A stretch of DNA of 64,000 nt from Candidatus Poribacteria bacterium (GCA_965208425.1 OZ242335.1:6151181-6215180), one strand, 5' to 3'. Shown: positions 1,236 to 15,802, counted from the stretch's first letter. The notes: generated by a model not told the origin, from the letters alone. A program made the numbers and translations.

Positions 1236-1290
1236 CCCAATAGCAATTTCTTCAGGAGTCAAGTTGTATAATGAGTAACTGGTCAATCTC
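1203..1290 (-). pseudogene. Decayed 3'-terminal fragment of a type IIG RM gene. It encodes ...YSLYNLTPEEIAIGAGAENV with the stop lost. It is about 94% identical at the nucleotide level to the true 3' end of the 12170-15802 gene.
   Basis: 1215-1277 aligns to 12171-12233 with 4 mismatches in 67 nt. The peptide matches the C-terminus ...VYSLYNLTPEEIAIVEGAENV* of the 1210-aa protein. Confidence 0.7.
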
Positions 1291-1702
1291 ACTCCTCGGC
1301 TCCGCCTAAAGCGTCCGGGGATGGCGTTCTTGAAACGAATTTTGACCGTAGTGCGAGTTGAGTCGCTAAAAATAAAATGTCGTCCCGTCCATCTGGCCAC
1401 GGTATAATATCAGCATGTAAAGGATGTATAGAAGTTTCGGGTTCAACCTTTTGCTGGAGAGCGTAAACATCTTTTGCCAAAAGGTCAGCTCGACCGTACA
1501 AGGTCTTACCTCTCGGTTCAGCCACAAACTCATTACCAATTGACCAAATCGTGCTTTCGCTCAGTGTTGAGGTACGGTAAACGGACAATCGTTTGTTTTT
1601 TGGTGGAACAAATGCTTTAGCTTTAACAGTCTGATCCGACGGGCGAAACTCATTTCTACTCAGTATGAAACGACTAATTCTTTCATTTGGATCAATTGTC
1701 AT
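1289..1702 (-). CDS. Hypothetical protein of 137 aa, the distal gene of a two-gene overlapping module.
   Basis: ORF with start-stop overlap (1692-1702) with the upstream 205-aa gene. No recognisable motif. Confidence 0.45.
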   Translation of the reverse strand: MTIDPNERISRFILSRNEFRPSDQTVKAKAFVPPKNKRLSVYRTSTLSESTIWSIGNEFVAEPRGKTLYGRADLLAKDVYALQQKVEPETSIHPLHADIIPWPDGRDDILFLATQLALRSKFVSRTPSPDALGGAEE

Positions 1703-2309
1703 AACGGAGGTAAAGACCTGTAATCATGCCAATAACGGCGATAAGGTGAGGCATTGAAAAGGTTAATATCCCACGCGCTTGATTCCCCGCGCCGAAGATT
1801 CCAGCAAAAACGATGTGCCCATCTCCACCAAAACTCAAGGTAAATATCTTTTGTCCTTCTCGCCATTCGAGGCAGATTTCACCGTTGTCTAAGGGCATAA
1901 TATCCGGTAAGGGCACGAATTTGTTAACCGTTTTCAAAAACCTGTCCACATCTTCGTAAGCCGTTTCTGGGATGGCATCTAGCTCTTGATCAAGCCTCCT
2001 TTCTTCTTCCGCTTCTGCTCGTACTTTTTGGAGTATCTTCTCTATATCCTTTGGGGCGGGGTCATCTAAATCTGTGTGAACAGCACTTCCTTCTATCTGA
2101 GGTGCTTTTGCCAGTGCTTTCCATGCTCGATCGTAGTTTCTTAGTATCTCGTCCAAGGCGATTTCTGGATCACTCGCTGATTCAGGCGCGGCTTCGCAGT
2201 CTTCTTGATTCTGAAGATAGATCAGATAGTCAACGACTGCTTTCAGGTTTTCTGTTGAGAGTTGTTTGATTAATTCAACTGCTTGTTGTTGTAGGTCTAC
2301 TTTTCGCAT
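1692..2309 (-). CDS. Hypothetical protein of 205 aa. It carries a 'VVDYLIYLQ' motif shared with the TPR-TRD protein at 4162-6453.
   Basis: ORF. The N-terminal LKAVVDYLIYLQNQ resembles IGKIVDYLIYLQGQ in the 763-aa protein. The acidic middle and the C-terminal domain are unrecognised. Confidence 0.5.
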   Translation of the reverse strand: MRKVDLQQQAVELIKQLSTENLKAVVDYLIYLQNQEDCEAAPESASDPEIALDEILRNYDRAWKALAKAPQIEGSAVHTDLDDPAPKDIEKILQKVRAEAEEERRLDQELDAIPETAYEDVDRFLKTVNKFVPLPDIMPLDNGEICLEWREGQKIFTLSFGGDGHIVFAGIFGAGNQARGILTFSMPHLIAVIGMITGLYLRYDN

Positions 2310-2746: not shown

Positions 2747-4165
2747 TTAATTTGCCGCTAATTCAGCTTCAAGTGTTTCCACCACTTTCATTGCCTCAGA
2801 AAGTTCTTTTTTGACCACAGTTACAGTGCGAGCATGGCTGAGTGGGTTCAGGATAATACTTCGATACAGTTCAATCTCGTTAATGAGGCTCTGCCCTAAA
2901 AAGGGTGTGCCATCCCTTAATGTTCCTGTTTTTATTGGACCCCAGAAATCTTTGCTTGTCAGATCTTTCGGATTTTCGCAGTATCTGACTTGAAGATTCT
3001 TCTTATCACAGAATCTCTTGATAGCCGCTTCAAAGGCGGTGCGAAGATAAATGACGCAGGCTTTGTAGTCGTTGGTGGTGAAATATTCCTTCGCCTTTTC
3101 AAGATATGCCTTATTTTTCGCGTAGATTGGGATCTCGTATTCGTCAGTTTGATCGGAATAGAATTCGGCGTATTCCCACTCTGCATCAGATGTTCGTTGT
3201 CTGACAATCTCATACCACGCCTTATCATACGTCATCAAAAAGATTTGGTAGTCTGAGAAATACTCATCTAGGATATCAAGCACCGGCAGGCGGTTTGACA
3301 TATCTAAGCCAATCAACACATCATCTAGGCCGAGAATCTTCAGGCGGCTTTCTGGCTGAATCAGGATTGATGAAAAGTAGATAGCGATAGCAATCGCCGA
3401 TAATCTCGCCTCGTTTAGGAAGAGGTGATGCCTAGGAATATTTCTGTTGAAGAAATCAACCGTTAAGAGAATTTGTTGATTATCAAGCTTCTTTGTCTTG
3501 TTGTTATATTTAACTCTTGGAAAATCGAAGTTGAGTTTAATGTTGTTTTCAAATTTGCCAAGAATTTCAGATGCCCTCGGCTGCAGTTCTGCTAATCTGT
3601 TTGTTAATTCATCGTTGAAATTCGCTATCTGTCTTTCAAGGATTGCAATTTGACCTGCTGCATTTCGGCGTGGATATGGTGGTTGAATGTCAGCCCAATC
3701 ATCCGCAAGGCTCCGACCCCCAATGTTGATGGTATTTGCCAAAAGCGTCTCAACCAGCAAATTGAACACATTCACAGCGTTACTTTCACGATGGATGTAG
3801 TGCGTCTCTAGAAGGGACTTATAGTCGAGAAAACCCTTTGTTTTTGATGCTTCAATAATCAGTTGGTCATCCGTCTCTCTAACGTTTTCCGACCATTCGT
3901 AGATCTCTTTTCTTGACCGTTCATTAGCACGGAGACCTAGTTTGATATAGCCCGCATCTGTGATAAAGATGTTCCGGTCGTTTTCAAATCTATGGGAAGG
4001 ATCTTCGCCGGATTCCAAGAACAGCTTTAACGCAAAATACAGGGACGATTTTCCGCTCCCATTTTCACCGTAAATTAGTAGGTTCTTCCCTGACTTGCGT
4101 AGGTCAATTCGGTAGGTTCCGTAAAAGGCTCTGAAGTTTTTGATTTCAATCTCAGTAATTCTCAC
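2747..4165 (-). CDS. ABC-type (AAA_15/AAA_21-like) ATPase, abortive-infection type. It is translationally coupled (GTG start overlapping the upstream TGA) to the TPR-TRD gene. The C-terminal ~140 aa may be a PrrC/HEPN-like effector (NPLSH motif).
   Basis: N-terminus ITEIEIKNFRAF, Walker A IYGENGSGKSSLYFAL and Walker B/D-loop RLKILGLDDVLIGLD. The tail ...YRSIILNPLSHA is an inference. Confidence 0.75.
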   Translation of the reverse strand: MRITEIEIKNFRAFYGTYRIDLRKSGKNLLIYGENGSGKSSLYFALKLFLESGEDPSHRFENDRNIFITDAGYIKLGLRANERSRKEIYEWSENVRETDDQLIIEASKTKGFLDYKSLLETHYIHRESNAVNVFNLLVETLLANTINIGGRSLADDWADIQPPYPRRNAAGQIAILERQIANFNDELTNRLAELQPRASEILGKFENNIKLNFDFPRVKYNNKTKKLDNQQILLTVDFFNRNIPRHHLFLNEARLSAIAIAIYFSSILIQPESRLKILGLDDVLIGLDMSNRLPVLDILDEYFSDYQIFLMTYDKAWYEIVRQRTSDAEWEYAEFYSDQTDEYEIPIYAKNKAYLEKAKEYFTTNDYKACVIYLRTAFEAAIKRFCDKKNLQVRYCENPKDLTSKDFWGPIKTGTLRDGTPFLGQSLINEIELYRSIILNPLSHARTVTVVKKELSEAMKVVETLEAELAAN

Positions 4166-6453
4166 GCCTTGTCCTCAATGATACGGATCGGTTTAACGCT
4201 ATTGAGAAAGAAAAGGTTCCGCCGGATCGGATGTGTTCTTTCATACAATCGCTCGAAGATCTCCTGTAACGCGGCCATTTTATCTCCCCGAATTTCTTCA
4301 AGCTGCGGCAACCGTTCATCCAACAACGGTTTGAAGAACTGCTTTTTCCCTTGATGCAGTGCTTCAGGTAGATAGGAGTCATAAACCAGTCCGTCAATGA
4401 TCCGCTCAAAGTACCCGAGCATTATGAAGTCGCGGGCGTGTGCCAAATCCACCCCACTCGTCGTCGGTTGTCCCTGAAGGTAGATGAGGTAATCGACAAT
4501 TTTGCCGATCAGGGATTTCTGCGTTGGTGTAAGATCGGGAATAGGGATTTGTTGCATATAGCGGCTGCGCGCCCGTAGATAATCGCCTGACAACTGGTTT
4601 GAAGTCTGCGAATAGAACCACTCCACAACGCGGGAATTGAGGAGACCGCACAACCACGTTTCCTCGGTCGGGATAAGGTAGCATGTATCCCCACAGTAAA
4701 ATCCTTCTGTATCAACGGCAAAGGTTTGATGGTCGTAGTTATTTGGGCAGATCAACTTCGTTTGCGTAAAGAGTTCAGCGTTGCTTCTGGTGGTTGGCAG
4801 TTCGTACCATTTCTGTTTACCCGCCCTTTTGCTCAAGGCGGATTTATATTTTTCCAAATGTTTTCGGATGGCGGGATAACGGTCTATCTCTATGCGACGG
4901 TAGGCAAAAATTAACCATGAGTCCCCGATAGATCGGGATTTATCAACCGGTTTCGCTACCCCCCAGCGTCTGATGTCTCGTCCATGCAAAAACGGTTTCA
5001 AAATATCGGCGGATGCAGGATGATCGGCAATGAGTAGATCTCGCGTCGCACTATCCACGACAAAGGCTCCGCTCCCGCCGGTCCTGATTCCGAAAGTAGG
5101 GCGCGTTTGAACATATTGCGACAGGGGTGGGCCTGCATCACGAAGCTTTGCAAGTAGATTCAATATATCGGGCGATTCAAAGGGTGTACCATCGGGTCTC
5201 AAGAATTTTTCTGTCTTGGGATAACGGCTCCTTCGCCGTTGTGTTAGCATCGCGGCAATGTCTTCGGGCAATTTAATACGATTTGCCCGCTCATACGCCT
5301 CAATGCTTCTGTAGTCATTATGAAATGCAGCGACGATATCCATTCCCAAGTCTTTGGCAGTAGTCAGATCTGATTTGGCTTCTTCCCACTCTCTCAAGTG
5401 CAACCACGCCCGGCCGCGATTGTTATAGGCGTTGACGAAAACGGGATTTAGGGCTATCGCTTTAGTATAGTCTACGATCGCACGGTCATAATCGCCTTTT
5501 TCACTGTAAGCCACTCCACGATTGTTATAGACGTTGGTATCATTGGGATTGAACTTTATTATTTTATTAAAATCTTCAATGGCGCGGTCAAAATCGCCTT
5601 TGTTGAAATAAGCAGCCCCACGATTGTAGTAGGCACCGACAAGGCGTAACTCTAATTGTATTGCAGTGTTATAGTTTTCAATGGCGCGGTCAAAATCGCC
5701 TTTGTTGAAATAAGCAATCCCGCGGTTGTTATAGGCCTCAGCATAATTAGGTTTGCGTTTTATCGCCGTGCTATGGTCTGCGATAGCACGGTCAAAATCG
5801 CCCTTTTTGTCGTAGGCAACCCCACGATTGGTATACGGCTCGGCATAATCAGGGTTAAGTTCTATCGCTTTGTTGTAGTCTTCAATGGCACGGTCAAAAT
5901 CGTGTTTTTTGTCATAAGCAGCACCACGATTGTTATATGGCTCAGCATAATTAGGTTTGCGTTTTATCGCCGTGTTAAAATCTGAGATAGCACGGTCAAA
6001 ATCGCCTTTTTCACGGTAAGCAATTCCACGATTGTTATATGGCTCGGCATAATCGGGTTTGCGTTTTATCGCCGTGTTATAGTCTGCGATGGCACGGTCA
6101 AAATCGCCCTTTAACCCGTAAACAACGCCACGATTGTTATAGGCTTTGGCATAATTGGGATTGAGTCTTATCGCTGTGTTAAAATCTTCAATGGCACGGT
6201 CAACCTCACCTTTTTTGCCGTAAGCAATCCCACGATTGTTATAGGCTTCGACAAAATCAGGTTTGAGTGCTATCGCTTTGCTAAATTCTGCGATTGCTTT
6301 GTCCTGATCCCCGTTTTCGCTATAGGTGATGCCGCGGGTATTATGTGCCTCGGCATCTTCAGATATCAGGGCTATTGCTTTGGTAGTATCCCTGTTAGGT
6401 ACACTTGTATGAGTGTAATCAAAGCTAGCAGTTGCTAAGTTGGGTACTAGCAT
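4162..6453 (-). CDS. Protein of about ten TPR repeats fused to a type-IIG/TaqI-like C-terminal TRD. It has no nuclease or methyltransferase motifs.
   Basis: Repeated AYNNRGxAYxxKGDFDRAIxDYNTAI units. The C-terminal 330 aa align block-by-block with the C-terminal region of the 1210-aa RM enzyme, sharing the CGLLNSR(V/L)xxFY motif. Confidence 0.75.
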   Translation of the reverse strand: MLVPNLATASFDYTHTSVPNRDTTKAIALISEDAEAHNTRGITYSENGDQDKAIAEFSKAIALKPDFVEAYNNRGIAYGKKGEVDRAIEDFNTAIRLNPNYAKAYNNRGVVYGLKGDFDRAIADYNTAIKRKPDYAEPYNNRGIAYREKGDFDRAISDFNTAIKRKPNYAEPYNNRGAAYDKKHDFDRAIEDYNKAIELNPDYAEPYTNRGVAYDKKGDFDRAIADHSTAIKRKPNYAEAYNNRGIAYFNKGDFDRAIENYNTAIQLELRLVGAYYNRGAAYFNKGDFDRAIEDFNKIIKFNPNDTNVYNNRGVAYSEKGDYDRAIVDYTKAIALNPVFVNAYNNRGRAWLHLREWEEAKSDLTTAKDLGMDIVAAFHNDYRSIEAYERANRIKLPEDIAAMLTQRRRSRYPKTEKFLRPDGTPFESPDILNLLAKLRDAGPPLSQYVQTRPTFGIRTGGSGAFVVDSATRDLLIADHPASADILKPFLHGRDIRRWGVAKPVDKSRSIGDSWLIFAYRRIEIDRYPAIRKHLEKYKSALSKRAGKQKWYELPTTRSNAELFTQTKLICPNNYDHQTFAVDTEGFYCGDTCYLIPTEETWLCGLLNSRVVEWFYSQTSNQLSGDYLRARSRYMQQIPIPDLTPTQKSLIGKIVDYLIYLQGQPTTSGVDLAHARDFIMLGYFERIIDGLVYDSYLPEALHQGKKQFFKPLLDERLPQLEEIRGDKMAALQEIFERLYERTHPIRRNLFFLNSVKPIRIIEDKA

Positions 6454-6613
6454 GACCTCTTCTCCTTCGCGATACGGATTTTTTTTGGTGCCATAATAAT
6501 CTGCTGATGGATAGGTGTCACCTAAATTTCACGGAGTAGACTGGCTGCACATTCTGTTTGATGCTTGGAAACGATCCGGAAGTCGTGAACTTGGGTTAAA
6601 ATGAATATCCTAA

Positions 6614-8278
6614 TTATTCGATTGGCGTGTTTTCTATCTGATCTAGCGTTTCAGAAAGTGGCAGAATACGGCTTTTGAGGGCTTGAGCCAACTGATTGTC
6701 TTTCTGAATTAGGGTGAGAACCATGCGCTCATAATCCTTTTGGTTGCGACATCTAAGGGTTGTTGCGATGATTTCAAAAGTTCGACTTTTACGCAGTGAG
6801 TAACGAGCAATAAGCTGATCTAGCTTACCCTCGTCAACGAGCTTATTGAAGCGATGCAGCTCCTCAGAATAGGGGCTTGGATCAATAGATACACAAATTG
6901 GTTGATTTGGGTTATCCATAATTGACTCCTTGGACGGAATTTGCAATAAGACTCTTTCACGTATTTGGCGTTCACATCGTAGTGAGGCCATTCGTTCAGC
7001 CGTTTTCTCCGCTTCCACTTTCAGGGCTTCAATCGCTTTCTGCTTGGCAGATTTGATGAGTTCGTCGGCATCGTAGCCAAGGGAATCCTCTTGTTGGCGA
7101 GCAACAGCGGCAATAGCGTCTGAGCAATAATAGAGAGCTTCAACCGAGTACACATCCAAGGCAAATACACCCTTTTCGGCGAGTTCCTTCACGTCGTCGT
7201 CCGTCCGGTTATCTCGGTCAATGAGGCCAAAGATCTCTACATGTACAGGGTGGATTCCTTGAGATCCACGCCACCCAAGCACCGCTTTTTGGACAGCCTC
7301 ACAACTCTCTTGCGGAACTACAGAAAGCTCGGGAAAGAGAGTAGTGTAAAGGGAAAAATCTGGACCGTCAGGCTTGCCTTCCACGAATAGAATCTTTTTT
7401 CTGGATCCAAGGATTGCAAGTTTAAGTTCTTCCGGGAGTTCAGCGTTCGGCTCCAGGACATAGGCATCCCAAGCTATACATTGATCGCCGCTCCATCGAC
7501 AAGATCTGAGCATGAGAATTTGTGCCTCTGGGTTAACAACTGGAAGTGCTATCTCATGAGTTGCAACAATAAATATGCAGTCCTCCCTTCTTTTGGCGAA
7601 TAATGCCGAGAGAAATGGTTGGATGATAGATCGGTGGAGATGTCTTTCCGGTTCGTCGATTAGAAGCACCTTTCCGGGTTCAGCCGTGATGACATGCGCT
7701 GCGATGATCATTGCGTTCCGTTCACCATCTGACATTTCTGCAACACTGAAGGGATCTCCCTGGGGATGCCTTGCGAGTAGATTCCGGTCATCGGGATTTT
7801 CGACCGTAACTGTCAGCGTACCGAGAGCAAGCAATTCATTTATCTGATCGAACGGAGAAGGCGATTCAGCAGAAATATCTCGTGCTTTCGTGAGATCTTT
7901 ACTATCTACATGACGAGCAATGGCACGGGCACGGGTGTTTTCTTTGGCAACCAAGTCAAATAGGATAGCAGATAAATCCTGCTGTGCCCTGAGATCTTTC
8001 CAGCGAGCCGCATTGGTTATGTGATAGCCTAGTGTTTGATCCTCATGTTGCTGGCGTTGTTCAGATGTAAAATCGCTGCTTCCTGAATTGAACCATGTTT
8101 GTCTGTGTGCAGCTATCCATTTAACCCGGTTATTCCTATTCTCTGAAACAAACCGCTGTATTAACGCCGATTTGCCAGAACCATTAGGTCCTACGATGAA
8201 CAATGGATTACCAATCTTTAGTGTTAGTTGTATTGGATCGCTCGATATTCTCGGAATTTGCCAGTTTATGTCTCCCAT
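6614..8278 (-). CDS. Fused ABC ATPase + DUF4435/TOPRIM nuclease, of the PARIS AriA-AriB fusion type or an OLD-family enzyme.
   Basis: Walker A FIVGPNGSGKSALIQ, signature-like MSDGERNAMI, Walker B KVLLIDEPERHLH. The C-terminal TOPRIM shows KKILFVEGKPDGPDF and GLIDRDNRTDDD. Confidence 0.7.
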   Translation of the reverse strand: MGDINWQIPRISSDPIQLTLKIGNPLFIVGPNGSGKSALIQRFVSENRNNRVKWIAAHRQTWFNSGSSDFTSEQRQQHEDQTLGYHITNAARWKDLRAQQDLSAILFDLVAKENTRARAIARHVDSKDLTKARDISAESPSPFDQINELLALGTLTVTVENPDDRNLLARHPQGDPFSVAEMSDGERNAMIIAAHVITAEPGKVLLIDEPERHLHRSIIQPFLSALFAKRREDCIFIVATHEIALPVVNPEAQILMLRSCRWSGDQCIAWDAYVLEPNAELPEELKLAILGSRKKILFVEGKPDGPDFSLYTTLFPELSVVPQESCEAVQKAVLGWRGSQGIHPVHVEIFGLIDRDNRTDDDVKELAEKGVFALDVYSVEALYYCSDAIAAVARQQEDSLGYDADELIKSAKQKAIEALKVEAEKTAERMASLRCERQIRERVLLQIPSKESIMDNPNQPICVSIDPSPYSEELHRFNKLVDEGKLDQLIARYSLRKSRTFEIIATTLRCRNQKDYERMVLTLIQKDNQLAQALKSRILPLSETLDQIENTPIE

Positions 8279-8364: not shown

Positions 8365-8480
8365 TACCTATCCTTTAATCCTGAAAATCCTGATTCTGAC
8401 GGTTTTCCTATTGTCAGAATCGCTGATTATCGCAGATTTAAGGATTACACAGATTCAAAAAAACCCGTCATACCATCATA
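8365..8480. repeat. C-family hairpin element with both arms (aatcctgaaaatcctgattctgac ... gtcagaatcgctgattatcgcagatttaaggattacacagattc).
   Basis: Sequence comparison. Confidence 0.6.
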
Positions 8481-9423
8481 TTGAATACTCATCAAACGCA
8501 TCGTCAAATGAAATTTTGCCTTCACACATTTGCTGCCGGACTTCCAATATCTTCCGTGCCGTAGGTAGTCCCTTCACTACAATTTTTGCCTCAATGTGCA
8601 ACCGTTGAAATAATTGATTAAGTTCGTTTACAATATGCTCCCGCATACATGCCTGCGTCCACCTCAATGTTATATTTCTATAATTCCAGTAGAACTCATT
8701 TCGGTATTCTAGGTTGTCATCCCCGTGATTCCAGCCCCACCGCGTCATAATCCTTGCTACGAAAATTTCTATCTCCCTGACGTAAAGTTGGAAGTTGAAA
8801 TATACAGGCCACTCTTGCATGCTCACTTCCTCCATTAAAAAAGGTGGGGTGGGATCCGGACAACGAGCTAGCTTCCTCAGCATTGCACGGTAACCTTGGT
8901 AACCACCCAACCTCTTCGGTATTGCGATATCCCAGATATCCTCCTCCGGTATCATAATGCAGCACCTTTCCCATACGCTACGGTCAGCCTTGGGAATTAC
9001 CTGGATGTACCTCCCAAAGACATGAAACAACCGCAGGGACGTGAAATTATACAATCGGCGTGCTTCGCCAGTTTCCACATCTCGGATAATCTCATGTACG
9101 ACACGACCATGCGATATAAGATAACGAGCAAGCTGCTCTACTGAATCACTCAACAACTCCTCCAATCTACGCCAGTCATGCCAATCCGTACTAGTGAGTG
9201 ATTCCAGAATTGCAACCGCGTGGGATTTATGTTCCGAATCGCCTTGTATGTCCACAGAGAAATTTGGGGACTGAAGCGATTCACCGCCAATTGGCATTAC
9301 CGCTAGGGAAGCATGTCGTTTGAACACATGTGTATTTGTATTGAAATCAATTTCTTCTCGTAAACTTGGAAAGTACTTGGCAGCGCGTGGTGCTTTCAAT
9401 TGTTCACAGGATTCAGATCTCAT
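8476..9423 (-). CDS. Hypothetical protein of 315 aa, distal gene of a three-gene operon (ATGA overlap with the upstream gene).
   Basis: ORF with operon context. No motif recognised. Confidence 0.5.
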   Translation of the reverse strand: MRSESCEQLKAPRAAKYFPSLREEIDFNTNTHVFKRHASLAVMPIGGESLQSPNFSVDIQGDSEHKSHAVAILESLTSTDWHDWRRLEELLSDSVEQLARYLISHGRVVHEIIRDVETGEARRLYNFTSLRLFHVFGRYIQVIPKADRSVWERCCIMIPEEDIWDIAIPKRLGGYQGYRAMLRKLARCPDPTPPFLMEEVSMQEWPVYFNFQLYVREIEIFVARIMTRWGWNHGDDNLEYRNEFYWNYRNITLRWTQACMREHIVNELNQLFQRLHIEAKIVVKGLPTARKILEVRQQMCEGKISFDDAFDEYSI

Positions 9424-11090
9424 GATGATTCGTCCATCGTATCGCGACTTTCCTCCCTTCTAATTGCTTCTTCGATATCCCCATGCCGCAGCAGCCTACC
9501 GAAATCCAAGTTTTTCCCATCTTCTCGCTGGCAAACATATTTCGCGATAAAAATGTCAATCCCATCGTAAAATAAAAAGTCGTCGTTTCTTGCGAATACT
9601 CTCACCAACGGACTTTTGTGTATCACAACAGTCTCGGTACCACCAAGGATGCCACCATAATCGAGGGCAATCTCTTTACGTTCCACATCCCCCAGTCGTC
9701 GTTGTATCATCTGCATCCATCTGGTTCTATTTGTGCTTCGGTGTGCTATCTCGAACGCTGATTCGGTGAGCGAGACAGCTTCAGCGAGAAACTTAAGCAG
9801 CGGAAGCTGCGACTGAGCTGAATCCTGGTCGAGATAATTGTCCCACTCCTTCACTATCGGTTCCTTCAGGCATACTGTATCGTGATAGTCAGAAAGTAGG
9901 TATGCGTAACCGCTAACTTCCATTAGGTCCAAAAGAGGCGCAACAGCGATTTTTAGATCTCTTTCAATTTGCCATACCGACATGTTTTCTTTAGGTTTCA
10001 GTTTTTCAAACTGTAGTGAGCTGCCATAAAAGTAACTTTTGAAAAGTGCGTCAACCATATCGCAATCATTTTCACACATAGCAGTAAGTAACGCTTCTCC
10101 AACGTTGTGCAGAAATTGTCCCGCAAAGTCTGGATACGATTCTGGTTTTGAGATCAAAGATAGTAGGATATTCTCAGTGGACATGAGCTTTAGAAGTTTT
10201 TTTTCTCGCTGCTTCCCTTTTTCTATTAACTTATCAATGTCCAAGCTTGGCCAGAGAAGATTTTCTATTCTTCGATCAGAATTGAGATCGCTCCAAAGAT
10301 GGTCCAGAGTATTTGTGTGATGATCCAGTTTGTTCCAATACTCTAACTCTGTTGATATCATTACCGCTGCCAACCATGGATGCTTTGAAGATGTTGCGAT
10401 CTCTATCCAATGCTTATAGAGATCGCCTGCTTTTTCATAAAAAAAACTCATTGCAGTCAGAAGGTTCTTTGCCTCCTGTTGTGCTATCAGCTCTTGAATA
10501 TACCAAGAAGGACTGATGACGCACCCTTCAACTCTTTCCTCGAATTCAAGCCTTGAGCGCAGCCATTCAAGTTGTGTCAGAATATGTACAGCAAATCCGG
10601 CTTTGTAGATTGATTGCTCTGACTTCCATGTAATACGATGGATACGCTGAAGTATCTCAGCCCGTCCATAAGATTCAATAGCACTAATATAGGCCAGAAG
10701 AACATTAATCGGCATCATTGCCAACTGTTCACAAATTTGCATGTGTTCCAGGGGTTCTTCTGCAACAACCTTATCCTTCTTGACAAAAATAAGAGCTTCA
10801 CAATGGGAAAAAATATCGCGTATCAGGTCGAATGCAAATTCCACCTGCTGCTCTTTTACAAGTTGTTGGATATAAGCGTCAAGATCGCCGAGGAGTTTGT
10901 CAGCTAAAGCATAACGTTTGTTTCTTATGTTGATTTCCAGACAACCTTTCACGATTGGTAATATTGCAGCTTCAATCCATCTTGGGTCGCTTACGAGTTT
11001 TGGCCGCAGTCCGGTAGCAGTCTCGTGTGCCAGAGATGTTTCTGTATCACCTGATACCAATCTGGATGCATGACTCGCTTCTCGTACCAT
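9420..11090 (-). CDS. Hypothetical protein of 556 aa, predicted all-alpha, middle gene of the three-gene operon. Its annotated start overlaps the upstream gene by about 100 bp, so the true start may be internal (for example the GTG for ...IVKGCLEIN).
   Basis: ORF. No motif recognised. Confidence 0.5.
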   Translation of the reverse strand: MVREASHASRLVSGDTETSLAHETATGLRPKLVSDPRWIEAAILPIVKGCLEINIRNKRYALADKLLGDLDAYIQQLVKEQQVEFAFDLIRDIFSHCEALIFVKKDKVVAEEPLEHMQICEQLAMMPINVLLAYISAIESYGRAEILQRIHRITWKSEQSIYKAGFAVHILTQLEWLRSRLEFEERVEGCVISPSWYIQELIAQQEAKNLLTAMSFFYEKAGDLYKHWIEIATSSKHPWLAAVMISTELEYWNKLDHHTNTLDHLWSDLNSDRRIENLLWPSLDIDKLIEKGKQREKKLLKLMSTENILLSLISKPESYPDFAGQFLHNVGEALLTAMCENDCDMVDALFKSYFYGSSLQFEKLKPKENMSVWQIERDLKIAVAPLLDLMEVSGYAYLLSDYHDTVCLKEPIVKEWDNYLDQDSAQSQLPLLKFLAEAVSLTESAFEIAHRSTNRTRWMQMIQRRLGDVERKEIALDYGGILGGTETVVIHKSPLVRVFARNDDFLFYDGIDIFIAKYVCQREDGKNLDFGRLLRHGDIEEAIRREESRDTMDESS

Positions 11091-11959
11091 AGGCTATCGG
11101 TCGGAATCAATTTTTTTCCTGTTTCATAGTACATGAGAAATAAGAGGAGACGTTTGCACAGATTGGCAAATGGCTGGCCATTCAGATGCAGTTCTTTTTC
11201 CGCTATTTCAGACACAGCAGTAAGCGTTTCTATGGCCCTTTGAGCAACTCTATAAGCATGATTTTGGAATGATTGATCAGACCAGCGATAACCACCAGCT
11301 TGCATTTGTAGATAATACCGTCGTAACTGTTTGAACAAGCGATCAGAGAGGGTCGTGGGATCAGACAGATAAAACGCGCGTGCTCCCAATCGAACGAATC
11401 CAATAATTGTCAATCCTGCCCCTAGTAGAAGTAGTGGTATTGCCAGTATGATTGGTTCGCGACCTAGGGCGTGGAAAATGAGTAAGCATACACCGAAATA
11501 GGTAAATACAGCGATGCAGCCCATGTAAGCGTTACCGACTTGTTCTTTAGCTAGTAAGCTTCGGATGTTATTGGGGACCTTCGCATAGATAGCACCACCT
11601 AGAACGCTAATGGCAGCATAATAAAGACCGATGAATAAACCTCCGGCACCTACGACGGTAGCGAGCAGAGTTCCGTAGTGGTTCTCTTTGGGGATGGTAA
11701 AGCCTATTTCTGTGAACAAGGAAACGAAATATGAGTTAGTAATTTGGAGACCGAAGACTGTGAGGGGCACCAAGACCAGTTCGACTAGCGTGGACTTCAG
11801 TAGAGACAATAGAAATTTTGTTGTTGTACTCTCCTCCCGCATCCAGTGTTTCATTCCGAACAGCATTCGATAACTGACGAATACGAGATGTGAAAGAGCT
11901 CTTTTGGTCCTCCAGAAGAGCCGGGTTTGGGCGAAAAAAAGAAACAAGGAATTAAGCAT
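10991..11959 (-). CDS. Integral membrane protein (about 4 TM helices) with a ~130-aa cytoplasmic C-terminal domain. First gene of the three-gene operon.
   Basis: Hydrophobic segments LLATVVGAGGLFIGLYYAAISVLGGAIY, YMGCIAVFTYFGVCLLIFHAL and IILAIPLLLLGAGLTIIGFVRL. Confidence 0.5.
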   Translation of the reverse strand: MLNSLFLFFAQTRLFWRTKRALSHLVFVSYRMLFGMKHWMREESTTTKFLLSLLKSTLVELVLVPLTVFGLQITNSYFVSLFTEIGFTIPKENHYGTLLATVVGAGGLFIGLYYAAISVLGGAIYAKVPNNIRSLLAKEQVGNAYMGCIAVFTYFGVCLLIFHALGREPIILAIPLLLLGAGLTIIGFVRLGARAFYLSDPTTLSDRLFKQLRRYYLQMQAGGYRWSDQSFQNHAYRVAQRAIETLTAVSEIAEKELHLNGQPFANLCKRLLLFLMYYETGKKLIPTDSLWYEKRVMHPDWYQVIQKHLWHTRLLPDCGQNS

Positions 11960-12127: not shown

Positions 12128-12185
12128 AAGGACTTATCCTGTTAATCCTTCAATCCTGAAAATCCTGATTCAGACATTTTCCGCC
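12128..12185. repeat. C-family repeat arm (aatcctgaaaatcctgattcagac) abutting the stop of the RM gene.
   Basis: Sequence comparison. Confidence 0.55.
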
Positions 12186-15100
12186 CCCTCCACAATAGCG
12201 ATTTCTTCAGGAGTCAAGTTGTATAATGAGTATACTTGTTGGTTGATTTTCTCTTCAAGAGCATCTGTGTCTCCATCATAGTTTAATTTTTTAATACATA
12301 GAATTTGCTCTACTAGGGTTACGATTCGATCGTGCTTTACTTTTCCACCTGAACTAGCGAAGTCTAGAGAAGGAAGTGGCAATTGTTCAATGTACTGTTT
12401 ACTCGCAGCAAAATAGCCACTCCTGAAATTCGTTGAAACTTGCTTTAGATAAAAATCAAGCAAACGGGAATTTAATAAGCCGCATAAAAAAGCCAAACTT
12501 CCAAACGAGCGACGGATTGTGATTCCATAGCCACCTGTAGTTACATTGATAAAATAATAGTTATCATCATAGTCTAAATACGCCGATAATTCTGTAATCA
12601 TATAAGGTATCATTAATTTTGGCTGCTCCCAAAGCCCAAGATTTTGAGTCCGACCAAAACGATACCATTGTTCATCTGTAAATTTACCCTTTTCGCGTGC
12701 TTCCAGAACTTTTCTGTTACGATTTAGATATGCCCAAGCTAATGGATAATTCTGTTGCATTTCATTTTCAGAGAACAGTCTTGCAGAGTGATTTTTAATT
12801 TCATAGGGAAAAAGGACAAAAGCTGACGGTCTCGCTCTATATCGATGAACGTGACCACTACGAATAACAGGTTTTAGCACTTCTAACTCAACCGGAACCC
12901 ACTCCATGAGAGATTCAGAATATATATCAATTATGTCCTCTTCTTGATTAATCTCATATTTTTTGAAGAGAAGAACCTTGTCTGTACTTGTAATTAATCC
13001 CTGATAAATCCTATTTGACACATCCGCTAATTTTAAGGGCATTTTACGTAATTTATCAAAAACCCTTCCCTCTTTTCCCACCACAAAATTCCACGCTGCA
13101 CTCGTGACCTCTGTAGCCGAAACCATTCCTTCAACAGTCTCCCCTCTGTTACGCCACGCGAGTATATCGTTCACTTTGATGAAGCGAAAATCATTACTAC
13201 CACCTTTATTCAAAAAGAGCAAACAAGTATAGTTAGTTGCCCCCTCGAAAATCTGCTCATCTCCAAAGTGAACGATACTTTTCAGATATTTCCCTCTTGC
13301 GATCAACCTTCGCAAACCTTCGCCATATTTTGCATTGAAAAACTTATGTGGCAAAATATACGCTAATTGTCCATGACCATTTAGTAAAGCCAACCCTTTT
13401 TCCGCGAAGATCACATAAACATCATAGCTGCTAACTGCCGATTTATAATATTCATTATACAATATTTTCAGTCCCGGGTCCAAACTTTGCACTCGAATAT
13501 ACGGCGGGTTCCCAATTACTACATCAAACCCCTCCGCCACACCAAACATCCACTCCGGATCAAACCACTCCGCGCTTGAGTTCTGGTCGTAGGGGTCCCA
13601 AGCGGCGACTTTATTCGCATCATCGGCGGGCATACCGATATGCTTTAATTCCGTTGCTAACGCTTGACGCAATTTCTTGTCTTCTCGTTTACACGCCAGT
13701 TTCTGTGGGCGGGTTGTGGCATGGAAATGCCGCTCACGATTTTCGCCCAATTCTACCTCCAGAGCTTTCGCTTGGGGACTGGTCAGAGTTCGCTCTCCCT
13801 CAAGGCCGATGAGTGTGTTCGCTGCGATAAACCGCGTCTCCAGATTCGGCAGCGGCTTAATCCCAAAGTTATCGGCATTGTTATCCGGCTCCTGCTCAAT
13901 GGCGAGGGAGATGAAGAAGCGGAGTTTAGCGATTTGGCAGGCGATGGATTGAATGTCCAAGCCGAAGATGCTATTTTGGATGAGGTATAACTTCCGTCCG
14001 AAATCCCCCGAATAGTTTTCAAAGATTCTGCTAATTTCCTTGAGCTCTTCGTCGCGGGTCTGTCTATCCTTTGTATCAAACGCAGCCGCCGCCCGCTGGA
14101 TGGCACGTTCTTTCTGTAGCTGCTCCCACCGGGCGTTATCGGGGTCAAGCCGCCGCAGTGCGAGGGTCAATTTGTGCAGCACCCCCATCGGAAACGCACC
14201 CGACCCCACCGCCGGATCTAGTATTTTGAGTTCTGAAATTGCCCGCACCACCGCGTCGGCTTCGCGGCTGTCGAAAAATTCGCTCGCATCGTCAAACGCC
14301 TTTGCGTAGTCGAACAGATAGCGCAGCCGCTCGTCCGTTGACGACACCTGCGCTGCGAGTGCTGCCACCAGTGCCTCCTCCACCATATAGTCCACGATGG
14401 GGCGCGGGGTGTAGTAGGAGCCGGTCTGTTTCCGTGCTGTTGCGCCGGTTTCGGGGTTATAGGCGGCGAGTAGGTTTTCAAACACCTTGCCGAGTAGTTC
14501 CGGATCTAACGCGACCTCTTGCTCTATCGGTGTGTTCTCCTCAACGGTGAACTTGTAGCCTTTCAACAGAGGAATCAGACCGCGATCGACATCAAAGAAT
14601 AGATGGTTGGGAAGGCTTAACTTTTTGTAGTGTTCATCGGAAAAGCAGTCAATCCGATAGCCGCCGTCGCGTGTCGCTTCCTCGCTATCAAGGCAGTCAA
14701 ACAAGCCGCCGTTGATAAATGGTGTTTTTTCAAATAGCGTCAACAGTTTATCGGGGTCGGTTACCTGATCTTTGTAGCGATACAGTGAGAAATTGCGATG
14801 CCCTGTGTTTCCGCCTTTGGTGAACCGACGCTTCTCTATCTCGGTGTTCAGTGTCGCAAAAAACAGGTTCTGTAGCACGGCGCGATAGTAGGAATCGCCG
14901 GTGTCCTGATCGTAATCCTTCAGCAATGGGGCGATTTGTGTCTCACTGAACAGTGCATCGGCGATCAGTCCCTTCTCCTTGATGAACCAGACGAACAGCA
15001 GGCGCGTGATTAGGCGAATGACGTGCTCCTCCGGCTTCAAAGCGCGCTTTTCATTTGTTGGAAACTTCCCCTCAGCAACCGCCCATTCAAACCAGGTGAA

Positions 15101-15802
15101 CAACTCCCGGTAGAATTTCCTGTTGAGTTCTTCGGTGTCCAGTGTCTTTGCCCAGGCACGATGCAGCTCGACAAAATTGTGGATACCGTGCGTTTGGTTC
15201 AACGGTTCAAGGGCAAGATCGAAGAGGATGTCGATGTGGGCGCGGTGGGGGTCCTTGAAATCAATATCCTTGATGAGGGTTACTTTTTCGAGGACATCGC
15301 GGGATGGGTCGGAGGTGTGCAAACGGCGATCGATAATTGACAACGTGAGCGTCTCGCCGTGCTGAAAGAGCAGCATCGCGGGCATTATGAACAATTTGTT
15401 GATTTCGCGGGTGATTTGTGACAGTTGGGTGCGGTTGTAATTGCTGCCTTCCAACCGGAGCGCGAAGAAAAGGTAGGATTGGATGATGGTGTTATCCACC
15501 TGCGTCTGGCTGGGATCGAACAGCCATCCGGTTGCATCTGTGAGCGTCAGGTCATCGCCGCTGAGTTGGAAAAGCAGGTCAATGGAGCTCCACTCCCCTG
15601 TCAATGCCCTATCGTGATTTAGTTTGCCTTGCGAATCGTACGCGGCGATAAACGCCTCGGCGGTGTTCGATTCAAGGGCTAGGGTCCTTTCGCTCTGATA
15701 GCCGAGTGTGTTGAGCAGGTTTCGGGCGTTTTGGACGAGGCCCCCCGTGGTGAAGCGGTTTAGGGCTTTCGTGATGGCGGCTTTGTGTTGTGGGTCGTTC
15801 AT
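12170..15802 (-). CDS. Type IIG restriction-modification enzyme (Eco57I/MmeI-like fused endonuclease, gamma-class N6-adenine methyltransferase and TRD).
   Basis: 1210 aa. Motif I LDPAVGSGAFP, motif IV VVIGNPPYIRVQ, C-terminal TRD with CGLLNSRLLDFY and terminal ...LYNLTPEEIAIVEGAENV. No BREX partner genes nearby. Confidence 0.85.
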   Translation of the reverse strand: MNDPQHKAAITKALNRFTTGGLVQNARNLLNTLGYQSERTLALESNTAEAFIAAYDSQGKLNHDRALTGEWSSIDLLFQLSGDDLTLTDATGWLFDPSQTQVDNTIIQSYLFFALRLEGSNYNRTQLSQITREINKLFIMPAMLLFQHGETLTLSIIDRRLHTSDPSRDVLEKVTLIKDIDFKDPHRAHIDILFDLALEPLNQTHGIHNFVELHRAWAKTLDTEELNRKFYRELFTWFEWAVAEGKFPTNEKRALKPEEHVIRLITRLLFVWFIKEKGLIADALFSETQIAPLLKDYDQDTGDSYYRAVLQNLFFATLNTEIEKRRFTKGGNTGHRNFSLYRYKDQVTDPDKLLTLFEKTPFINGGLFDCLDSEEATRDGGYRIDCFSDEHYKKLSLPNHLFFDVDRGLIPLLKGYKFTVEENTPIEQEVALDPELLGKVFENLLAAYNPETGATARKQTGSYYTPRPIVDYMVEEALVAALAAQVSSTDERLRYLFDYAKAFDDASEFFDSREADAVVRAISELKILDPAVGSGAFPMGVLHKLTLALRRLDPDNARWEQLQKERAIQRAAAAFDTKDRQTRDEELKEISRIFENYSGDFGRKLYLIQNSIFGLDIQSIACQIAKLRFFISLAIEQEPDNNADNFGIKPLPNLETRFIAANTLIGLEGERTLTSPQAKALEVELGENRERHFHATTRPQKLACKREDKKLRQALATELKHIGMPADDANKVAAWDPYDQNSSAEWFDPEWMFGVAEGFDVVIGNPPYIRVQSLDPGLKILYNEYYKSAVSSYDVYVIFAEKGLALLNGHGQLAYILPHKFFNAKYGEGLRRLIARGKYLKSIVHFGDEQIFEGATNYTCLLFLNKGGSNDFRFIKVNDILAWRNRGETVEGMVSATEVTSAAWNFVVGKEGRVFDKLRKMPLKLADVSNRIYQGLITSTDKVLLFKKYEINQEEDIIDIYSESLMEWVPVELEVLKPVIRSGHVHRYRARPSAFVLFPYEIKNHSARLFSENEMQQNYPLAWAYLNRNRKVLEAREKGKFTDEQWYRFGRTQNLGLWEQPKLMIPYMITELSAYLDYDDNYYFINVTTGGYGITIRRSFGSLAFLCGLLNSRLLDFYLKQVSTNFRSGYFAASKQYIEQLPLPSLDFASSGGKVKHDRIVTLVEQILCIKKLNYDGDTDALEEKINQQVYSLYNLTPEEIAIVEGAENV

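Follow-up and report, generated by a model that had tools for sequence, protein, structure and literature searches.

A type IIG-like target-recognition domain on a TPR scaffold, coupled to an ABC-type ATPase with a HEPN-fold tail, in Candidatus Poribacteria

What is a target-recognition domain (TRD) of the type IIG restriction-modification (R-M) kind kept for when the enzyme around it is gone? This question is raised by two minus-strand open reading frames (ORFs) that occupy positions 2747..6453 of a 64,000-nucleotide (nt) stretch of Candidatus Poribacteria DNA (GCA_965208425.1 OZ242335.1:6151181-6215180), the whole of which is called the window here. One ORF encodes a TRD joined to an array of tetratricopeptide repeats (TPRs), and the other encodes an ABC-type ATPase with a HEPN-fold tail. 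Our analysis shows that the two belong to a conserved, translationally coupled pair of a TRD/extension protein and an ABC-HEPN protein, in which the enzyme part of the TRD partner is dispensable in one lineage. We give about an even chance to the fuller reading, which is that the pair is one functional module, an enzyme-less derivative of a widespread operon of type IIG enzyme and ABC-ATPase-HEPN protein, in which a latent RNase is gated by the TRD partner. The two genes, with lengths in amino acids (aa), and their junction are listed below.

4162..6453, minus strand: gene of the TPR-TRD-extension protein, the partner of the ATPase (763 aa; ORF with matches to Pfam TPR families and TaqI_C)

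2747..4165, minus strand: gene of the ABC/SMC-type ATPase (472 aa, GTG start)

4162..4165, minus strand: GTGA stop/start overlap of 4 nt (...AAG GCG TGA / GTG AGA ATT...)

An earlier, sequence-only reading of the window had described both proteins at 2747-6453, with the GTG start of the 472-aa ATPase overlapped by the stop of the TPR-TRD gene; this was confirmed, and both ORFs are on the minus strand. The GTGA overlap itself is a sequence feature indicating translational coupling. Both genes are under purifying selection. For the last 372 aa of the TPR-TRD protein, the ratio of nonsynonymous to synonymous substitution rates (dN/dS) between the window and three relatives was 0.09-0.23; the ATPase gave 0.10-0.28 in the same comparison.

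The 763-aa protein consists, in order, of a 32-aa leader, ten TPR units, a conserved linker, a TaqI_C TRD, a helical spacer and a final 68 aa. Its main parts are encoded as follows.

5338..6357, minus strand: TPR array of ten 34-aa units (aa 33-372), in perfect register, Pfam TPR_1 E 4e-99

4531..5103, minus strand: TRD core of TaqI_C / MmeI_TRD type (aa ~451-641), matched by a TRD-core hidden Markov model (HMM), with no methyltransferase domain attached

4369..4530, minus strand: helical spacer after the TRD (aa ~642-695), with spacer HMM matches and an LVYxxYL motif that is common to TaqI_C enzymes

4165..4368, minus strand: 68-aa C-terminal extension, matched by an extension HMM and specific to ATPase-coupled TRD proteins

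The ten in-register units agree with the approximately ten repeats of the sequence-only reading. The last unit is a capping unit that runs into the conserved linker, and the DNA that encodes the repeats is itself a 102-bp tandem array (5469..6294, 74% matches). The region after the repeats had been read as a type IIG TRD, and the profile searches retrieved such domains in several ways. First, Pfam TaqI_C (PF12950) matches aa 487-638 with 53.6 bits against a cutoff of 26.5 (E 3.3e-14). Secondly, the PADLOC models for type IIG enzymes match the protein at aa ~430-654 (E 4e-21). Third, a profile of the family matches the TRD of M.BseCI (PDB 7qw5, residues 333-572) with E 2.6e-11. In addition, BLASTP aligned the orphan protein with the neighbouring 1210-aa type IIG enzyme at 26% identity over 180 aa (E 1e-11). 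Two of the three blocks that the sequence-only reading had aligned between these proteins, the second and the third, lie inside this BLAST high-scoring segment pair, while the first lies outside it. The enzyme parts said to be lacking are indeed lacking: a motif scan of the 763-aa protein returned neither [NDS]PP[YFW] nor xGxG motifs, and a Pfam scan returned no Eco57I, N6_Mtase or nuclease profile matches. The protein therefore falls outside the type IIG R-M enzymes, which carry the N6-adenine methyltransferase motifs FxGxG and NPPY and an N-terminal nuclease in the same chain.

The second gene encodes a two-domain protein, whose halves are given below.

3146..4165, minus strand: ABC/SMC-type ATPase head (aa 1-340), with Walker A GENGSGKS and Walker B ILGLDD

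2750..3145, minus strand: HEPN-fold tail (aa 341-472), with R375, E379 (followed by K383, as E-x3-K), N440 and H444

The Walker A, Walker B and NPLSH motifs that had been named in the ATPase were located at aa 33 (GENGSGKS), aa 277 (ILGLDD) and aa 440, respectively. By its Walker motifs and its Pfam SMC_N match (aa 3-320, E 9e-12, above the gathering cutoff), the head is an ABC/Rad50-like NTPase domain in the N-terminal position that it occupies in proteins of the PrrC/RloC type. AAA_15 and AAA_23 match as well. Of the proposed AAA_15/21 assignment, AAA_21 gives a weak match under its cutoff. PADLOC, NCBIfam and PHROGs scans of the ATPase gave P-loop or head matches only. For example, the PADLOC models of LmuB, AriA, GajA and PtuA match at aa 1-~100 only, and AriA only over the P-loop at aa 1-64. 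In an alignment of 42 diverse representatives, with overall identity down to 31%, the invariant head residues are G33, N35, G36, G38, K39, D281, D282, Q307, T312 and D314.

In the same alignment R375, E379, N440 and H444 of the tail are invariant, and C386 and E454 are kept in at least 90% of members. A structure search with the tail led to the 'classical' HEPN domain, which gives the ATPase the second hallmark of the PrrC/RloC type, a C-terminal HEPN-fold domain. The tail also carries the E-x3-[KR] motif that has been described for HEPN domains (PMC3710099), with an invariant E379 and, at position 383, mostly K or R. Sequence profiles gave weak matches to the tail in scans of aa 341-472 (DUF4145, E 0.036; CARF_HEPN, E 0.024), and the latter was the one match that PADLOC returned for the ATPase tail and the TRD tail together. 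The tail thus has a HEPN fold with four invariant polar residues, from which we infer that it may catalyse RNA cleavage. In one relative of the ATPase (P0391, 606 aa), the tail typical of the family is followed by another, canonical DUF4145/HEPN domain (aa 493-602, E 3e-7).

The joint conservation of the pair was examined from both sides. The C-terminal 372 aa of the TPR-TRD protein were used as the query for TRD homologues and retrieved at least 239 homologous protein clusters, of which the best 120 are 56-91% identical to it. Intact ORFs are present in no fewer than 120 distinct clusters at 90% identity, and the named sources among the best 120 are Candidatus Poribacteria, plus one Curvivirga. 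The homologues have three architectures: TRD alone (~385 aa), TPR(n)-TRD and TIR-TPR-TRD (651 aa). The search with the ATPase returned thousands of matches. When representatives at 50% identity were searched exhaustively, 2600 proteins matched at E <= 1e-3 and 550 reached E <= 1e-30; most of the best-scoring ones align over nearly their full length, tail included. Many of the TRD and ATPase matches lie on contigs of identical size.

For the survey of gene context, the ATPase alignment was scanned against one genome per species and against viral contigs, and loci with upstream sequence were counted. A same-strand gene with a TaqI_C TRD lies 5' of the ATPase gene in 29/29 genome loci and in 6/6 viral-contig loci. 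The proposal that the two genes are conserved together is therefore borne out in all 35 loci, which span at least nine phyla. The TRD gene ends at or near the ATPase start in 33 of the 35, the exceptions being L011 and L014. In 10 of the 29 genome loci stop and start overlap by 4 nt (ATGA, GTGA or TTGA), and most of the others have a gap of 1-46 nt.

The kind of TRD gene differs between lineages. In about 26 loci it encodes a full-length type IIG enzyme of 1080-1370 aa with Eco57I, MmeI_Mtase and TaqI_C domains, and most of these enzymes have an NPPY-type motif. The loci with such an enzyme and the ATPase come from Bacteroidota, Latescibacteria, Acidobacteriota, Planctomycetota, Pseudomonadota, Spirochaetales and Campylobacterota. 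No PD-(D/E)xK nuclease domain was recognised in the type IIG enzymes, as the PDB and Pfam matches of the window enzyme and of the upstream genes elsewhere cover the methyltransferase and the TRD only. Partners with a TRD and no enzyme come from Poribacteria-like genomes and from Nostoc sp. LEGE 12447. They are TPR-TRD proteins in the window, L004, L006 and L007; a 569-aa protein with a TRD and a further N-terminal part in L012; a TIR-TPR-TRD protein in L001, with a frameshifted version in L002; an FRG-TPR-TRD protein in L005 (7653..10001), whose FRG domain (PF08867, E 9e-11) is N-terminal to the TPRs and the TRD; and a bare 356-aa TRD in the Nostoc locus, L008. What had looked like an isolated oddity is instead a derived form of a commoner operon of type IIG enzyme and ATPase family that occurs in many phyla.

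The final 68 aa of the TPR-TRD protein set the coupled partners apart. The HMM of this extension matches 21 of the 35 partner genes (one of them marginally), 19 of which end at the ATPase start. Its matches are confined to partner genes of the ATPase family, and it misses the uncoupled type IIG enzymes of the window, L001 and L002. The extension is thus a signature of coupling to the ATPase, and its distribution suggests that it may be the element by which the ATPase docks.

Three further observations were made in the surveyed loci. In the two Bacteroidota exceptions (L011, 6669..9983; L014, 6245..9910), a 1104-aa gene or four smaller genes lie between the extension-bearing type IIG gene and the ATPase gene, and these may be embedded extra components. 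Contigs from IMG/VR that are classed as viral (L036-L042) carry the operon of type IIG enzyme and ATPase; they may be prophage regions, and the operon may be mobile. L002 (8461..12042) is a decaying copy: a change of frame divides TIR-TPR (521 aa) from the TRD (385 aa), and the ATPase is cut short at 295 aa.

How did the TRD come to be separate from its enzyme in the window? The answer involves the enzyme that is encoded further upstream.

12170..15802, minus strand: Eco57I/MmeI-type, type IIG-like enzyme (1210 aa; Pfam Eco57I, N6_Mtase and TaqI_C; PADLOC REase_MTase_IIG E 1e-90)

In evolutionary terms this enzyme is probably the module's other half, and it is possibly a functional partner. 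In L003, from Latescibacteria, the type IIG enzyme is directly coupled to the ATPase, and it is 59% identical to aa 1-880 of the window enzyme. Its identity to the TRD of that enzyme is 23%, and its C-terminus is 59% identical to the spacer and extension of the window TPR-TRD protein. The L003 enzyme thus combines the N-terminal part of the window enzyme, a variable TRD and the tail of the TPR-TRD protein, and one ancestral chain corresponds to two genes of the window. The sequence-only reading had matched the orphan tail to the neighbouring type IIG enzyme; its closest matches are rather the C-termini of ATPase-coupled enzymes, as in L003.

L001 is syntenic with the window, with a formyl transferase downstream and amidase, GFO_IDH and EF-G upstream. 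There the genes for the type IIG enzyme (1180 aa), the TIR-TPR-TRD protein (651 aa) and the ATPase (467 aa) are contiguous, whereas in the window a 5.7-kb block with a fused PARIS AriAB gene and three ORFs without matches separates the type IIG and TPR-TRD genes. The type IIG enzymes of the two loci are 89% identical in the N-terminal part and 26% in the TRD. Within the window gene, the GC content falls to 0.36-0.41 in the TRD-encoding third (12170..13300) from 0.52-0.59 elsewhere (13600..15800). Together with the low TRD identity, this looks like a recent replacement of the enzyme's TRD by recombination, or a specificity swap. The orphan TRD core, in contrast, is 91% identical between the window and L001, and the mean pairwise identity of the orphan TRD across the TRD-only family is 72%. 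The orphan TRD is thus not behaving as a variable specificity element, and its conservation would fit a fixed ligand better than variable DNA targets; the sequence-reading TRD sensor that had been proposed is a hypothetical role for it. A role of the orphan TRD as a silent specificity cassette for the type IIG gene was also considered, and was rejected on two grounds: protein identity between the two TRDs is only 26%, and the orphan is conserved and expressed as part of a fusion.

How, then, might the pair work? The sequence-only reading had drawn a parallel with PrrC, which is held latent by EcoprrI, and this parallel is retained as the best available analogy. By this analogy, the ABC-HEPN protein would be a latent RNase like PrrC or RloC, docked to its TRD/extension partner and controlled by it. 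The element being watched would be the face of the TRD plus the extension. Infection would disturb the TRD surface, most likely through a phage anti-restriction protein or DNA mimic on the DNA-binding face, or else through the binding of foreign DNA. The disturbance would let the ATPase switch the HEPN domain on, cellular RNA, possibly tRNA, would be cut, and the infection would abort. In the window version the TRD would be a dedicated sensor or bait on a TPR scaffold, and the TPR array might hold this bait to the neighbouring type IIG enzyme in trans or multimerise the TRD protein. The TIR or FRG heads of paralogues would add a second effector. The strict coupling to an R-M-type gene fits the logic of an R-M protein as silencer and sensor of a suicidal RNase. 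A more specific version of this scheme, which we hold only tentatively, is that the TRD has been exapted as a stand-alone infection sensor on TPR, TIR-TPR or FRG-TPR proteins, where it would be a bait for anti-restriction proteins or a reader of a fixed DNA feature and would gate the ABC-HEPN RNase without any R-M activity.

Several observations weigh against the gated-RNase reading. First, the canonical arginine of the HEPN Rx4-6H motif is absent. Residues 437-439 are I, I and L, so that the positions H-5 to H-7 are L, I and I, and R or K is common only at H-9. HEPN families with the histidine and without the arginine exist (PMC3710099). RNase activity is thus plausible but not assured, and the tail could be non-catalytic. 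The earlier proposal that N-x3-H marks a HEPN-like anticodon nuclease site is accordingly kept as regards N440 and H444, which are invariant, and loosened as regards catalysis. Secondly, the Walker B motif of the ATPase is DD, in which the second Asp takes the place usual for the catalytic Glu, and the window ATPase has Tyr313 at the H-loop position, where some relatives have His. On this sequence, ATP turnover may be slow or absent. Third, Pfam AAA_13, which includes PrrC, scores 14.1 bits on the window ATPase against a cutoff of 36, and among the 42 relatives its best match is E 1.5e-6, over partial stretches. Fourth, no type IIG enzyme lies within 10 kb in the TRD-only loci L004, L005, L008 and L012, and any role of the neighbouring type IIG enzyme is thus optional. 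In addition, an AlphaFold2 model of the TRD region, from a 30-sequence family alignment, had a pLDDT of 48 and an unreadable surface, so the identity of the TRD rests on sequence profiles. Lastly, docking and activation are steps that we infer, and the trigger is conjecture.

The missing arginine also bears on the alternative that survives best, which is nevertheless unlikely. It holds that the ATPase is an SMC/Rad50-like DNA clamp or sensor recruited by the enzyme or the TRD protein, with a non-catalytic tail, and that the module acts on DNA and not on RNA. The best-matching models for the head are SMC_N, RecF, Rad50 and SbcC, and the sole PADLOC model that spans the whole head is mad3 (E 3e-9) of the MADS system, in which mad3 is needed for defence and not for methylation (bioRxiv 10.1101/2023.03.30.534895). 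Moreover, HEPN domains without the motif are known as non-catalytic binders (PMC3710099). However, a purely structural tail is hard to square with N440, H444, R375 and E379 being invariant down to 31% identity. A long coiled coil and a nuclease partner are both missing, and the pair persists where restriction and methylation domains are gone, so the ATPase is not merely a cleavage accessory.

The same pairing data bear on whether the two proteins are linked at all. The ABC-HEPN protein might be a self-contained, RloC-like abortive-infection protein that neither touches the TRD protein nor is regulated through it, given that RloC-type ABC-HEPN proteins act alone (PMC3710099) and that defence genes cluster for reasons besides interaction. 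We consider this quite improbable. A same-strand, TRD-bearing gene precedes the ATPase gene in all 35 loci, in most cases with an overlap or a gap of a few nt; the partner-specific 68-aa extension co-occurs with the ATPase; and the TRD and extension are kept even where the enzyme has been lost.

It is more improbable still that the TPR-TRD protein is an alternative specificity subunit that works in trans for the neighbouring type IIG enzyme, in the manner of HsdS or a type IIB S subunit, with the ATPase as a passenger. A specificity cassette would show the opposite of the pattern found, in which the orphan is conserved (72% on average, 91% against L001) and the TRD of the enzyme varies (26%). 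The enzyme already carries a TRD, the TPR-TRD protein is strictly coupled to the ATPase and not to the enzyme, and the pair occurs in the four loci named above without a type IIG enzyme within 10 kb. These points are set against the presence of such an enzyme beside or near the pair in the window, L001, L002 and L006, and against the capacity that a TPR array could have for binding in trans. The notion that the TRD gene is a decaying type IIG fragment fused by chance to one of the TPR genes that abound in sponge symbionts, in a pair with no function of its own, has some appeal in that the L002 copy is visibly decaying (frameshift between TIR-TPR and TRD, 295-aa ATPase) and Poribacteria are rich in TPR proteins, but it is scarcely credible and already largely refuted by the conservation data, namely at least 120 intact 90%-identity clusters, dN/dS of 0.09-0.23, a domain cut exactly at the methyltransferase/TRD boundary, ordered N-terminal modules (TIR, FRG, TPR) and a conserved overlap with the ATPase start.

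The pair sits in a defence island beside the fused PARIS AriAB gene and the type IIG enzyme. The other features of this part of the window are listed here.

6614..8278, minus strand: 554-aa fused PARIS AriA ATPase and AriB/DUF4435 (PADLOC AriAB PDLC02982, E 6e-57)

8476..11959, minus strand: three packed or overlapping ORFs (322, 556 and 315 aa) between the type IIG and PARIS genes

1289..2309, minus strand: two ORFs (205 and 137 aa) between the ATPase and formyltransferase genes

6493..6521, minus strand: promoter-like site, weak evidence (GTGACA-17-TATTAT, 10/12 matches, 40 nt 5' of the TPR-TRD start codon)

The fused AriAB gene is the one directly 5' of the TPR-TRD gene; syntenic L001 lacks it. 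The ORFs of 322, 556 and 315 aa matched nothing in Pfam, NCBIfam, PADLOC or PHROGs, and tblastn matched them to none of the fetched loci; they are possibly an uncharacterised cassette inside the defence island. The ORFs of 205 and 137 aa had no family matches and no counterpart in L001, and may be spurious or strain-specific. Promoter-like sites are not more numerous in the region than expected from shuffled sequence, and the terminator scan likewise did no better than chance.

These results matter for several reasons. First, current defence-annotation tools split a common gene pair into 'RM type IIG' and an unnamed ATPase. Secondly, the orphan TRD is under purifying selection for something besides variable sequence specificity. 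Third, the Poribacteria and Nostoc loci amount to a natural deletion: the TRD, a short extension and the ATPase-HEPN protein remain, which pinpoints the part of the R-M system that a suicide module would watch. Such a pair offers a minimal two-protein system for testing how guards of this sort are triggered. Lastly, a PrrC-like logic appears to be hard-wired to single-chain type IIG enzymes across many phyla. The pairing of a type IIG enzyme or TRD with an ABC-HEPN protein is what appears to be new here; R-M-linked ABC-HEPN fusions are of an already known kind (PMC3710099).

As the sequence-only reading had anticipated, no system model of PADLOC, Pfam or NCBIfam covers the pair. The type IIG and ABC-HEPN pairing and the TPR/TIR-TRD proteins were not found described in a literature search that covered type IIG with HEPN or ATPase, TaqI_C, Eco57I/MmeI with HEPN or RloC, the reappraisals of BREX and Dnd and the survey of HEPN domains; a prior mention in the ABC-ATPase classification of Krishnan et al. 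2020 is possible. PARIS, Gabija, Septu and Lamassu do not account for the pair, which has no full-length ATPase match to them and no Toprim, HNH or LmuA partner. PARIS (AriA ABC ATPase and AriB Toprim) is alike in that an ABC ATPase senses phage anti-restriction proteins and releases a tRNA-cutting effector. However, AriA belongs to another ATPase clade (OLD-type), the effector is a Toprim and not a HEPN domain, and PARIS has no TRD partner. MADS resembles the pair as a methyltransferase-linked defence (mad2 and mad3) whose mad3 model covers the head of the window ATPase. It differs in being an eight-gene system without a TRD-only partner, and the mad3 model (374 positions) stops before the HEPN tail. 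The mad6-8 genes are mandatory in the MADS model (bioRxiv 10.1101/2023.03.30.534895), and other mad models were absent among the best-listed PADLOC matches for the neighbouring proteins.

The Eco57I/MmeI type IIG enzymes, M.TaqI, M.BseCI and CamA share with the window protein a homologous TRD and the LVYxxYL motif of the spacer. The orphan protein differs from these type IIG enzymes and gamma-class methyltransferases in having neither a nuclease nor a methyltransferase domain, in a TRD that is conserved and not hypervariable, and in its 68-aa extension and its TPR, TIR or FRG N-terminus. For the ATPase, the R-M-linked ABC-HEPN fusions already known are PrrC, RloC, APECO1_4465 and ERFG_01251 (Anantharaman et al. 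2013, PMC3710099). The last three have the same two-domain architecture, several of them in R-M operons, and ERFG_01251 has a 'classical' HEPN domain like the one to which the structure search of the window tail led. These families keep Rx4-6H, unlike the window ATPase, and an invariable coupling to a TaqI_C TRD gene is described for none of them. In addition, RloC works by itself and has a long coiled coil that bears a zinc hook, whereas the window ATPase has no long coiled-coil insertion.

PrrC is the one well-studied R-M-linked ABC-HEPN second-line nuclease and is tied to a rare type Ic system. Its Walker B is of the DD type, as in the window ATPase. Like the window ATPase, PrrC of the E. 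coli prr locus has an ABC-type NTPase head and a C-terminal HEPN-fold domain, and its gene is embedded in or coupled to R-M genes. In the window family, however, all 35 loci have as partner either a type IIG enzyme in a single chain or a TRD protein that lacks the enzyme, and not HsdMSR. The coupling apparently runs through the TRD together with the 68-aa extension, and the HEPN motif, N-x3-H, lacks the canonical arginine. For these reasons, and in view of the AAA_13 scores, the family was not filed as PrrC. The EcoprrI R-M protein keeps the PrrC anticodon nuclease latent and passes on the phage signal (PMC3710099). If the TRD has indeed become a stand-alone sensor that gates the RNase, the operon of type IIG enzyme and ABC-HEPN protein would be a built-in guard of type IIG enzymes, an unnoticed and widespread type II counterpart of PrrC-EcoprrI.

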